In this document: piece by piece, positions 32,401 to 35,400 of the stretch
Numbering within the stretch: the first letter of the stretch is position 1
Layout of the letters: every line of letters starts with the position of its first letter
Source of the DNA: a virus
DNA length: 64,000 bases
UHGV virus genome: UHGV-0134996
Strand: one strand, 5' to 3'
Program-made: the position numbers

Positions 32401-35400
32401 ACGGCATTACAGCTATGCATTGCTCATCTTACACACAGCGCAATGTTGTTAGATTACCCCAGCATGGATCATGGGTGAAACAGTAGGTCAGAGCTTCAGG
32501 CTCTGTGTTGTCAATACAGTGAGGCATAATTATGGCTTTCATTCAACCAACCATCGACGACGTTAGACATTGCTCTAACGCTTTATCTGTAGACCCTGCC
32601 GAAACCGACGCTGCCCGCGCCATTGCTGAACACTACTCAAAGATATCCAATCAGGAGTACCGCATCACCCAAGACGACCTGGATGACCTCACTGACACAA
32701 TCGAATATCTCATGGCAACTAACCAGTTAGACTCACAATAAATGCACTAATAAATCTATTATTTTTGTTTGATCCCTCTATAATATAGGTCAGTAATGAC
32801 CGGTTTTCTCAGCCGGGCGTTATTGACCATGTCAATTCTGGAGGAGGATCAATGATAAATTATGTCTACGGCGAACAACTGTACCAGGAGTTCGTCAGCT
32901 TCAGGGATCTCTTTCTAAAAAAAGCTGTTGCACGCGCCCAACACGTTGATACAGCCAGCGACGGTCGTCCTGTACGCCCGGTTGTCGTTCTACCGTTCAA
33001 AGAAACTGACAGCATTCAGGCTGAAATTGATAAATGGACTTTAATGGCGCGGGAACTGGAACAGTACCCAGACCTCAATATCCCAAAGACTATTTTATAT
33101 CCAGTGCCTAACATCCTTCGCGGTGTGCGCAAGGTTACAACTTATCAGACAGAAGCTGTGAACAGCGTCAACATGACCGCTGGCCGCATTATTCATCTGA
33201 TTGATAAGGACATTCGCATCCAAAAAAGCGCGGGGATCAATGAGCACAGTGCGAAATACATAGAGAACCTGGAAGCAACAAAAGAGCTAATGAGGCAGTA
33301 CCCGGAGGATGAAAAATTCCGTATGCGCGTACACGGCTTTAGCGAAACAATGCTGCGCGTTCACTACATCTCCAGTAGTCCTAACTACAATAACGGTAAA
33401 TCAGTTAGTTACCATGTGCCGCTGTGTGGCGTGTTTATCTGCGATGAAACTCTCCGTGATGGAATCATCATCAACGGTGAATTCGAGAAAGCAAAATTTA
33501 GCCTTTATGACTCCATAGAACCGATCATCTGCGACCGCTGGCCGCAAGCAAAAATATATCGCCTGGCAGATATTGAAAATGTAAAAAAACAAATTGCCAT
33601 CACTCGTGAAGAGAAAAAGGTTAAGTCAGCCGCATCAGTTACGCGCAGCCGTAAAACCAAGAAGGGGCAGCCAGTAAACGACAACCCCGAAAGCGCGCAA
33701 TAAATTATGCCCGGCATCAACCGGGCATTCTTCCATTATTCAGCCGCCACCGGTTTTAACAAGCCAGCATCGAGCAGTTTACGCGTCAACCACTGCTGGC
33801 CTTTACCCGTTAATTGAGGCGTCAACCGTATCTGGTAGCCATCTTCATCATCCAGCACCACTTCTTTCACCGTGAAATACCCCGCATTGATGTACTGCTG
33901 GAACGGCACATTTTTACGTCCACCGGACGCTATCAGGATGCCGTTCTCCCGTAACCAGGCAAACAGCGCGTTTTGCTTAAGTCCAACAACCTTTGCAAAA
34001 TTTCCAATCAGGATCCCCTTAGCCACTGATACCCGGTCGGCAAAATCGACTTTGGGGGCTGCGGCCACCAGCTGCTGATTTAGCTGGTGGGCTTTCTGTT
34101 CCAGAAGTTGCTTTTGTTCAGCCAGTTCGGCAGCCAGGCGCAGAGCTTCGGGCAATGTTTGGGGGATCGCTGGAGAAGCAGCGCTAACCTGCTGCAACTC
34201 CTCCAGCTTGTCGATCAGCGAACGGCGGACCGCTTTTGACTCGCGCGCGGCGACTCGCAGGGCTTGTTTGAAAGTCATGGTGATAATGTCTATGTTTGCA
34301 CCATTTTTGCGACCTACACTTTTTGTGTAGGTCTCACCTTCAAGCTCATCTACAACCTTCTCAATAAACTTATTATTTCTTACTAATGGTTCCCCACATA
34401 ACTTACGCGCCTCATTAACCATCTTTAACAGCGTCTGGCTGTCGATTGTGTCTCCGGTGTTGGGGATAGCATCCATGACCGGTGCTGGTGTGGTTGCTGT
34501 CAAAGGCTTTGTAACGACAACATCTGGTTTGCTTGCTTTCATTCTGTGTGCCTCCTTGCGTGTTTCGGCTGCGACGGTTGCGTAATTCAGATGCCCCTGT
34601 TCGAGCAGGTATTCGCGGATATCAGACAACAGAATGCGGTGAACAGCGTTCTTGTCCTTTCTCCGGTAAAGTTGTTTGGTGATCATGAAGTAGTTGGCAA
34701 TAACACCCGGTATATCCCTGGTACTGATACAGGATGTGTGCTGTTCAATTGCCTCAATCATTTCTTCACGGGTGACTAATGACGTTCTCATCGTCCCTCC
34801 TGAGCAGAAGTGTTAACAGGGAGGCACCAGTAACTGAGAGAATTGCGCGAGTTAGTTGAAAAACGGGCAGTAAAAATGCAGGGGCCATCAGGCAATTGAG
34901 AGCGTGCCTCATCTTCTGTCGGTGCAATAACGAAGTGATAGTGACGTTTTTGGCAGGAGTAAAAGCGCCAGATAAATTCAGGATGAGTTGGGGTAGGGAT
35001 AGTAGCCATATTGGCAGCCTCCTTAGACGTTGGTATGTAACCACCGCAGAAGAGACCAATCTTGCTGGCGGTGGACTGTACGGAGTTGGCCTTACTGGCG
35101 TCCAAGGTAACCAGCCTACCCGAAGGTAGCCCCATACAGCCCACCATTGTAGAGGTGTGCGTGTACGCCGATACAAAAAAAAGACGCGAGCGGCGTCTGT
35201 ATCGCCTTAGACTTAAGCGGGAGGCCAATCCCGGCACCCGTTTTAATGAGGTGCCTGATAAGCATAAACCGAAAATGCCTCAAGGCGCAAGAGGTCAGGT
35301 TCAATGTAACATCGGCAGTCAAAAAACACAATTTATTAGAGCAAATATTTATTCGTTAAGCCATGCAAGAGCTTCATCAACCTGCGCTTCGTCTTCGACG

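Follow-up and report, generated by a model that had tools for sequence, protein, structure and literature searches.

A probable additional immI-type antirepressor cassette with an IsrK-type leader between pacB and c1 of a P1-like phage-plasmid

The immI regions of P1 and P7 are made up, in this order, of the operator Op51, the promoters P51a/b, the sites a1 and b1, the c4 gene, the sites a2 and b2, icd and ant1/ant2. In P1, the C4 RNA is cut out by RNase P, and the P1 a1b1 sites are not known to act as decoys. The CI immunity of the satellite phage P4 works via premature transcription termination of the replication genes and does without an antirepressor. Its arrangement (seqA - CI - seqC) resembles the locus described here in that a small RNA is processed from an operon leader and has targets both up- and downstream (discussed in PMC4825925). 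Gifsy-1 of Salmonella (isrK-orf45-anrP) offers a further parallel (Hershko-Shalev et al. 2016, PMC4825925): an RNA of the IsrK family ends at a terminator of its own, read-through leads into an antirepressor operon, and translation of the antirepressor is coupled to that of a short ORF upstream. There, a processed RNA from further downstream, STnc1160, is complementary to the middle of IsrK and pairs with it, and IsrK supplied in trans raises anrP translation 139-fold (PMC4825925). Unlike at the present locus, the coupled orf45 of Gifsy-1 overlies the RNA region, no separate icd being described, and the downstream effect is AntQ antitermination in a lambdoid prophage. Finally, an insertion between pacB and c1 has already been mentioned by Venturini et al. 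2019 (PMC6906374), and the 'ant' insertion of RCS47 and pTZ20_1P (PMC6906374) agrees with our locus in site, flanks and the succession of an IsrK-type leader, C4 and icd.

In the window, i.e. the whole 64-kb stretch of virus genome UHGV-0134996 analyzed here, a 1645-bp cassette fills the gap between pacB and c1 and is set exactly between the stop codons of these two convergent genes. Genome comparison placed pacB and c1 of P1 only 24 bp apart, i.e. adjacent, and the P1 annotation places immI beside kilA-repL, both as stated in an initial annotation of this DNA. The canonical position, between sim and kilA-repL, is also seen in pLH85-a-A; the cassette instead occupies the pacB-c1 interval. The c4-icd-ant module of immI type that had been proposed here, between c1 and pacB and convergent to c1, was recovered through its ORFs and an Rfam C4 match at this place. 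Its parts (operator-like site, putative promoters, a1, b1, C4, a2, b2 and icd) follow one another as in the annotated P1 immI, and the likeness to P1/P7 immI extends to an upstream C1 operator-like site, the C4 fold, the two-site (a, b) recognition, the position of b2 on the icd Shine-Dalgarno sequence, an ATGA overlap and an ant2 start at codon 84. We assign a probability of about 0.8 to the reading that a P1-like phage-plasmid carries here a complete, extra immunity/antirepressor cassette of immI type. The stop codons of ant and c1, which face each other, are separated by a 9-bp hairpin (33707-33728) that is likely to act as a two-way terminator. The same window also contains a class A beta-lactamase beside a Tn3-family transposase.

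At the upstream end of the cassette, the C1 operator-like site TTTGCTCTAATAAATTG (35329-35345, minus strand) begins 4 nt past the pacB stop codon. Of its 17 positions, 15 agree with the consensus of P1 C1 operators, and in the alignment it falls on the annotated P1 Oc4, making it the positional homolog of P1 Oc4/Op51 and substantiating the minus-strand operator-like site noticed initially; at three or fewer mismatches, 13 C1 operator-like sites were counted in the window versus 0.29 expected. On the minus strand, a promoter scan made no call upstream of the leader. The two putative promoters given here were positioned solely by alignment to mapped P1 promoters, and both are weak by consensus. 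The upstream, P51a-like one (35303-35331, minus strand; -35 TTGTGT, 17-nt spacer, -10 TACATT) is homologous in position to the annotated P1 P2c4 and overlaps the operator. The main, P51b-like one (35261-35290, minus strand; -35 TTGCGC, 18-nt spacer, -10 TATGCT) is homologous in position to P1 P1c4, and its -10 stops 7 nt short of where the IsrK-like RNA begins. The 3' end of this short RNA coincides with an intrinsic terminator (35175-35198, minus strand; 6-bp stem and a run of 8 U), read-through of which must be required for C4, icd and ant.

The leader RNA itself (35177-35254, minus strand) was matched by the Rfam isrK model RF01394 over positions 1-77 of 77 (60.8 bits, gathering score 50), and its fold comprises three hairpins, the last of which is the terminator; taken alone, it folds no better than shuffled sequence (z = -0.96). 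The loop of its hairpin 2 contains a1 (UUGGCCU, 35222-35228, minus strand), with b1 (GUCUAAGG, 35205-35212, minus strand) just downstream, and the leader appears to be the functional equivalent of the P1 a1b1 region. The annotated a1/b1 sites of P1 sit within a weak isrK match as well as a match to RF03163 (c4-a1b1). Searches with RF03163 gave no match in the window at the gathering score, nor, at E <= 0.01, in RCS47 or in L001, a locus identical to the present one; P1-type leaders score 51 and 56 bits. Compared with P1/P7 immI, the cassette is distinguished by an IsrK-type leader with a strong terminator in place of the leader matching RF03163.

The C4 antisense RNA gene (35064-35151, minus strand) falls in the 165 nt separating this terminator from icd and was matched over the full length of Rfam RF01695 (model positions 1-87 of 87; 75.9 bits, gathering score 45). 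From its homology to C4 of P1, a mature RNA spanning about 35067-35145 (minus strand) is predicted. The MFE fold of the isolated C4 corresponds to the family structure, with a long closing stem, two hairpins and unpaired recognition sequences (-41.6 kcal/mol, z = -3.5), and a comparison of three backbones revealed compensatory changes in 11 of the 23 pairs. Of the recognition sequences, b' (CCUUGGAC, 35100-35107, minus strand) lies in the hairpin 2 loop, whereas a' (AGGCCAA, 35086-35092, minus strand) is located in the single-stranded joint. On the icd mRNA, the C4 target region (35013-35059, minus strand) contains a2 (UUGGUCU, 35053-35059) and b2 (again GUCUAAGG, 35021-35028) in the position and order of the annotated P1 a2/b2, and b2 overlaps the icd Shine-Dalgarno sequence AAGGAGG at 35018-35024. 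An ORF of 149 aa that shares the reading frame of icd (34788-35237) was rejected as a real longer protein because it crosses the IsrK RNA gene, the terminator and the C4 gene. In RefSeq, no RNA is annotated at C4, and the region is labeled instead as a partial 'ash family protein' pseudogene; this pseudogene looks like the same sort of artefact, and its label on a C4 gene exposes an annotation gap.

The initial annotation had arranged these elements differently, with a c4-like antisense RNA upstream of the terminator (35175-35330), followed by an icd-like ORF, and with the motif GGATTGGCCTCC pairing to the ribosome-binding and start region of icd. Terminator and icd-like ORF do occur in that order, but with C4 lying between them, and Rfam search and folding put the IsrK-type leader with its C4 targets on the stretch proposed for the antisense RNA. 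The motif (35220-35231, minus strand) lies inside this leader, contains a1 and has the same sense as a2 (UUGGCCU versus UUGGUCU), which makes it the complement of C4, perfectly so for a', and not of the mRNA. A 7-bp match of the motif to the ribosome-binding site (GGCCUCC:GGAGGCU, -15.2 kcal/mol) is indeed present in this allele, and the whole-leader MFE fold shows similar long-range pairing. However, this pairing is allele-specific, falling to between -4.6 and -7.6 kcal/mol in other alleles, whereas a1b1:C4 pairing holds at -29 to -36 kcal/mol across alleles. The match can be understood as a by-product: a1 resembles a2, which, together with its flank, pairs locally with the Shine-Dalgarno sequence as the 5' arm of a hairpin. 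An antisense RNA upstream of the terminator is largely refuted by the covariation described below, and we regard it as hardly credible.

Downstream of the C4 target region lies the icd-like gene (34788-35009, minus strand), whose 73-aa product matches NF033153 (E = 2.2e-13; 50 bits, cut-off 25) and is 83% identical to P1 Icd over 65 aligned residues. Its TGA stop overlaps the ATG of ant as ATGA (34788-34791), from which we infer translational coupling of icd and ant. The 351-aa product of ant1 (33736-34791, minus strand) shows 75% identity to P1 Ant1 over its full length, matches PHROG 63 'anti-repressor Ant' (E = 1.7e-116) and bears an ANT/KilAC domain (PF03374) at residues 239-340 (E = 2.4e-31; 108.7 bits, gathering score 25.3). 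The early description of an Icd-like ORF of 73 aa with a stop overlapping the start of a 351-aa KilA-C/ANT antirepressor was thereby upheld. A nested in-frame start at M84 (ATG 34540-34542), with AAGGAGG (34551-34557) 8 nt upstream, aligns with the P1 ant2 start. Over aligned regions, the cassette's proteins are 75-83% identical to those of P1/P7 immI, and dN/dS against canonical P1-type copies amounts to 0.19 for icd and 0.15 for ant (overall range 0.15-0.21). The Pfam search returned no match for Icd, C1, PacB or Coi, and the NCBIfam search none for Ant.

Within the module, a1 pairs with a' at 7 of 7 positions and a2 with a' through 6 Watson-Crick pairs and 1 G.U of 7, while b1 and b2 each pair with b' through 7 Watson-Crick pairs and 1 G.U of 8. 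Together, C4 forms 15 of 15 pairs (13 Watson-Crick, 2 G.U) with its own a2 and b2. Relative to P1/P7 immI, the cassette differs in its C4 backbone and in its a'/b' key, and the pairing of a2, b1 and b2 includes G.U wobbles. C4 of the cassette reaches 7 of 15 Watson-Crick pairs against a P1-type target, and the reverse combination 6 of 15. Given that the cassette key is mismatched to the P1-type canonical immI targets of the collinear relative pLH85-a-A, the two switches should be independent.

These pairings were followed across related modules; for b1 and a2 of P1-type leaders, whose columns are out of register in the larger alignment, we used a smaller alignment and a hand-checked table. Among 151 IMG/VR modules, IsrK-type leaders comprise 3 a and 3 b alleles and P1-type leaders 2 a and 6 b alleles, and each a'/b' allele change is mirrored in the target sites, with two exceptions at a1. 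These are the recombinants L023 and L083, in which a1 is mismatched to its own a' and matches the a' of another allele; a1 match is thus not strictly required. This covariation also bears on a quite different function of the IsrK-like RNA, namely that of a chiefly Hfq-dependent trans-acting sRNA for host genes with no C4 role. Both the Rfam family name ('isrK Hfq binding RNA') and the end formed by terminator hairpin and U-run, typical of Hfq-binding sRNAs, would be compatible with such a function, but the variable loop and linker covary with a'/b' of the own-module C4 in all but 2 of 151 modules, as expected of a C4 partner, which renders it very improbable.

For the extra immI-type cassette, we propose the following working. 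Transcription would start from the promoters positionally homologous to P1 P51a/P51b, with the C1 operator overlapping the upstream one, and many transcripts would stop at the intrinsic terminator, yielding a short IsrK-like RNA (about 80 nt) in which a1 and b1 are exposed. Read-through transcripts would contain C4, which would then be excised. Through a' and b', C4 would bind a2 and b2 of the same mRNA and, as b2 lies over the icd Shine-Dalgarno sequence, icd translation would be blocked, and with it ant1/ant2 expression via ATGA coupling and polarity. The a1b1 leader may compete for C4, either in cis or as the free short RNA, and a surplus would lift repression, similar to the effect of IsrK on anrP in Gifsy-1. 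Ant1/Ant2 would finally inactivate the C1 repressor. The complementarity of C4 to its targets and their covariation were observed, and the remaining steps are carried over by homology. More tentatively, and with considerable doubt, we raise the possibility that the IsrK-type a1b1 leader is a terminated sRNA sponge for C4 (an 'anti-antisense'), which would explain a1/b1 of P1 and would be the same device as IsrK/STnc1160 of Gifsy-1, and that up to three switches per genome (kilA, pacB-c1 and cre-proximal) with freely recombining (a, b) keys form a combinatorial immunity barcode. Such a barcode would determine which relatives, whether co-resident or superinfecting, are kept in check, and recombinants whose a1 fits a foreign a' could then act as decoys against a competitor's C4.

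As to the number of modules in this genome, pLH85-a-A is collinear with the window, at 97-98% identity over most of it and 99.7% across the cassette, and holds the cassette together with a canonical immI beside kilA-repL that has a P1-type C4; the keys of the two do not cross-pair. The initial annotation had left open whether the module is relocated or additional, and since the collinear relative has both modules, it is very probably additional. The window corresponds to 33-91 kb of pLH85-a-A and so does not reach the canonical immI of that plasmid at 10.8-12.4 kb; going by its relatives alone, the canonical immI of the window genome would lie outside the 64 kb. A relocated module serving as the sole immI could account for the presence of one C4 and one icd in the window, the kilA-repL region being outside it, and canonical immI has been lost in some P1-like elements, e.g. 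pJIE250-3 (PMC6906374). Nevertheless, the canonical immI of pLH85-a-A falls outside the stretch collinear with the window, and of the IMG/VR contigs whose length suffices to cover the two loci, most have both occupied, making a sole immI distinctly unlikely.

The placement is not unusual. About 259 PLSDB plasmids have a cassette at pacB-c1, versus 314 with an empty junction, and the phages RCS47, JL22 and 673R5 also carry an insertion there, which comes near to what had been named initially as speaking against a relocated or additional module, i.e. P1-like genomes with the same genes at this position as ordinary backbone. This variant in full length matches only 3 PLSDB records. The cassette is a well-formed and fairly ordinary example of a module common in P1-like plasmids. 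All pacB-c1 modules carry IsrK-type leaders and most canonical modules P1-type leaders. In 18 contigs with two or three modules, the keys differ in every one; this tests selection for orthogonality only weakly, as position-specific lineages would yield the outcome by themselves.

The diversity at this locus could also suggest that the cassette acts mainly between elements, with Ant and the a1b1 decoy directed at the repressors or C4 RNAs of competing P1-like plasmids or prophages. The key of RCS47 (a' GUCUCAA, b' CCUUUGAC) differs from that of the cassette; residues 1-86 and 209-351 of its Ant are identical to those of the cassette's Ant, whereas the middle is an ORF6N domain in RCS47 and P1-Ant-like here. 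The ORF6N middle domain of this common RCS47-type Ant suggests different protein targets, and a single genome can contain as many as three modules whose keys differ. L023 and L083, with an a1 matching the a' of another allele, point the same way. Moreover, Stx lambdoid phages contain related leader-C4 regions, and a leader-C4-icd arrangement is present in a chromosomal integrase-primase element (integrase and TOPRIM/DUF927 protein). On the other hand, the Ant of the cassette is P1-Ant-like throughout (75% identity), so that C1 is the simplest target, and its own upstream C1 operator-like site would link the cassette to the element's own circuit. A role mainly between elements is compatible with our main explanation, and we consider it unlikely as the principal one.

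In E. coli and Salmonella, resistance genes are frequently found on P1-like phage-plasmids, and the immunity systems of these elements determine which of them coexist, exclude or induce one another. The interest of the extra immI-type cassette is modest and lies in the orthogonal keys of multiple modules and in the tie between IsrK and the a1b1 sites of P1. If the model is true, many such elements would hold two or three antirepressor switches with RNA keys that do not cross-pair, and the picture of one immI drawn from P1 and P7 would be incomplete. A lysogen would need both C4 types against a superinfecting phage of this kind and would gain immunity to both types, and heteroimmunity would be predictable from two short motifs per module.

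The window is a P1-like phage-plasmid in which cre (30667-31698, minus strand), coi (32532-32741, plus strand) and c1 (32852-33703, plus strand) are followed on the minus strand by ant (33736-34791), icd (34788-35009), pacB (35349-36833) and pacA (36833-38026). The gap between pacB and c1, which measures 24 bp between gene ends in P1, is filled here by 1645 bp holding a real, intact and well-supported second immI-type switch. The protein genes had been named correctly in the initial annotation: the 351-aa Ant carries an ANT/KilAC domain at its C-terminal end, and the 73-aa Icd matches the NCBIfam Icd-like model. 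These ORFs, the ATGA overlap of the icd stop with the ant start, the operator-like site, the terminator and the putative antisense motif were all borne out at the sequence level. The C1 operator-like site (TTTGCTCTAATAAATTG, 35329-35345, minus strand) has its first base 4 nt past the pacB stop, and allowing up to 3 mismatches to the 17-bp operator consensus yielded 13 sites in the window (10980-56020; 0.29 expected by chance), including those near cre/ref (30156, 30633), coi/c1 (32194, 32277, 32741) and lpa (38636).

RNA genes were called by an Rfam scan at curated thresholds. The c4-like RNA had been placed upstream of the intrinsic terminator (35175-35198, minus strand); full-length C4 instead lies downstream of it (35064-35151, minus strand; 75.9 bits, gathering 45), inside the 165 nt separating terminator from icd. 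The supposedly non-coding stretch is spanned by an IsrK-family RNA (35177-35254, minus strand; 60.8 bits, gathering 50), of which the terminator forms the end. When folded in isolation, C4 adopts the family structure (-41.6 kcal/mol, z = -3.5), and 11 of its 23 pairs show compensatory changes across three divergent backbones of P1-like elements, the window representing a third lineage separate from those of P1 and RCS47. RefSeq/PGAP labels this region a partial 'ash family protein' pseudogene without any ncRNA feature (NZ_CP100487.1 60753-60854, corresponding to window 35064-35151). Protein ORFs are also drawn over the C4 region in a chromosomal element and in Stx phage P13374, and it looks as if an RNA gene is systematically misannotated as protein.

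The order of parts is identical to that annotated in the P1 record (Oc4, P51a/b, a1, b1, c4, a2, b2, icd, ant1/ant2). The C4 recognition sites, a' in the joint (AGGCCAA, 35086-35092) and b' in the hairpin-2 loop (CCUUGGAC, 35100-35107), face two sets of targets. Upstream, a1 (UUGGCCU, 35222-35228) pairs at 7 of 7 positions and b1 (GUCUAAGG, 35205-35212) by 7 Watson-Crick pairs and one G.U of 8; before icd, a2 (UUGGUCU, 35053-35059) forms 6 Watson-Crick pairs and one G.U of 7, and b2 (GUCUAAGG, 35021-35028), which overlaps the icd Shine-Dalgarno, pairs exactly as b1 does. Since a1 is complementary to C4 and the order is that of P1, the motif taken for antisense (GGATTGGCCTCC, 35220-35231, minus strand) is on these sequence grounds the upstream target copy. 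Its claimed complementarity to the icd ribosome-binding site does exist here (GGCCUCC:GGAGGCU, -15.2 kcal/mol) but is confined to this allele, the same pairing reaching -4.6 to -7.6 kcal/mol in others, compared with -29 to -36 kcal/mol for leader:C4 duplexes. The match likely arises because a1 is a mimic of a2, which, together with its flank, folds into a hairpin with the Shine-Dalgarno. This local hairpin (35010-35057, minus strand) folds at -20.6 kcal/mol (z = -2.56), and the icd ribosome-binding site may thus be partly closed even without C4.

The immI logic of P1 is established, and by homology C4 would stop icd translation at b2, coupling and polarity would then shut off ant1/ant2, and Ant, when made, would inactivate C1. 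Given the strong terminator 3' of the a1 and b1 sites, a separate short RNA is expected. The homologous IsrK RNA of Gifsy-1 lifts antirepressor translation 139-fold in trans and pairs with STnc1160, a processed downstream RNA, through a helix defined by G28A/G31A and C162U/C159U (PMC4825925). By manual count on the predicted transcript, this helix corresponds in register to the a1:a' pairing of the window (nt 27-33 with nt 163-169). Given this activity and register, we favour a model in which the leader would titrate C4.

Both ant and icd are under purifying selection (dN/dS 0.15-0.21, dS about 0.9-1.1) and, judging from this divergence, are old paralogs that neither arose by recent duplication nor have decayed. 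Over its first 86 and last 143 residues Ant is identical to RCS47 Ant, and its middle part is P1-Ant-like, that of most pacB-c1 cassettes, RCS47 included, being an ORF6N domain. Full-length matches to this variant occur in only three PLSDB records.

As to whether the module is additional or relocated, the window aligns collinearly with the 33-91 kb stretch of plasmid pLH85-a-A (NZ_CP100487.1), at 97-98% identity across most of its length and 99.7% across the cassette. That plasmid also has the canonical immI adjoining kilA-repL (10.8-12.4 kb), with a C4 identical to that of P1, which argues for an additional module; for the window's own replicon we infer this, as the canonical site falls beyond the 64 kb. 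The two keys fail to cross-pair (7 and 6 Watson-Crick pairs of 15). A segment showing no alignment to pLH85-a-A is a Tn2/Tn3-like resistance insertion, comprising a class A beta-lactamase (286 aa, 28624-29484, plus strand) adjoining a Tn3-family transposase (24668-27879, minus strand) split into DUF4158 and DDE_Tnp_Tn3 ORFs, with ref (29623-30135) alongside. Between this transposon and darB, in a variable region, lies a SIR2-like gene (434 aa, 22304-23608, minus strand) matching the PADLOC candidate/defence models PDC-S25, ThsA-like and LmuA-like, possibly an anti-phage defence gene. A tRNA gene (63543-63615, minus strand; 64.7 bits) has a CAU anticodon loop; a handful of tRNA genes is a known feature of P1-like phages.

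The cassette is a common accessory. At least 80% of it plus flanks is covered in 259 PLSDB plasmids, 314 having the empty P1-type junction, and the window's leader type (coverage at least 80%) occurs in 103 plasmids and 131 of 5426 complete E. coli genomes. Phages RCS47, JL22 and vB_EcoM-673R5 carry the cassette; it was sought in P1, P7 and phiW39 and is absent there. The pacB-c1 insertion was already mentioned, with RCS47, by Venturini et al. (PMC6906374), and a second c4-icd region was likewise reported in a D6-like plasmid (PMC6799933); in the literature consulted we found no description of the RNAs of this locus.

Leaders were compared across 151 related modules from IMG/VR contigs, RCS47, P1 and pLH85-a-A. 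Three a alleles (AGGCCAA, GUCUCAA, GUUCCAA) and three b alleles (CCUUGGAC, CCUUUGAC, CCUUUUGC) occur with IsrK-type leaders, and two a and six b alleles with P1-type ones. Target copies covary with C4 in every allele except in the IMG/VR recombinants L023 and L083, whose a1 fits another allele's a' while their own a2 still matches. In L083 one module is flanked by pacB upstream and kilA downstream, as if two immI loci had recombined. Each C4 pairs with its own a2 and b2 at 15 of 15 positions (13 Watson-Crick and two G.U for the window type), and with other alleles' targets at only 5-13 Watson-Crick positions. All pacB-c1 modules in IMG/VR have IsrK-type leaders, the window's key being commonest (26 of about 57). 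Eighteen IMG/VR contigs hold two or three modules (three in, for example, IMGVR_UViG_3300045988_147834 and 2703718869_000013), with differing keys throughout; since leader type and position go together, the difference in keys is not in itself proof of selection for orthogonality. The third position adjoins cre on the side far from c1 (L011, at 3001-4056 with cre at 4665-5693, and L155; also L007-L014), with an Ant 91-96% identical to that of the window and a P1-type leader with b' CAUGUAC.

Beyond P1-like elements, the window's leader plus C4 shows 78-79% identity over 96% of its length to the region preceding antirepressor genes of Stx2a lambdoid phages, P13374 among them. A related leader-C4-icd arrangement also occurs in the E. 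coli ECONIH5 chromosome (2775165-2783446) with an integrase, an AntA/AntB antirepressor and a TOPRIM/DUF927 protein, in what looks like a P4-like satellite; if so, C4-type and P4 CI-type immunity would be tied together. The points of mild interest are the orthogonal keys of multi-module elements and the link of IsrK to the a1 and b1 sites.
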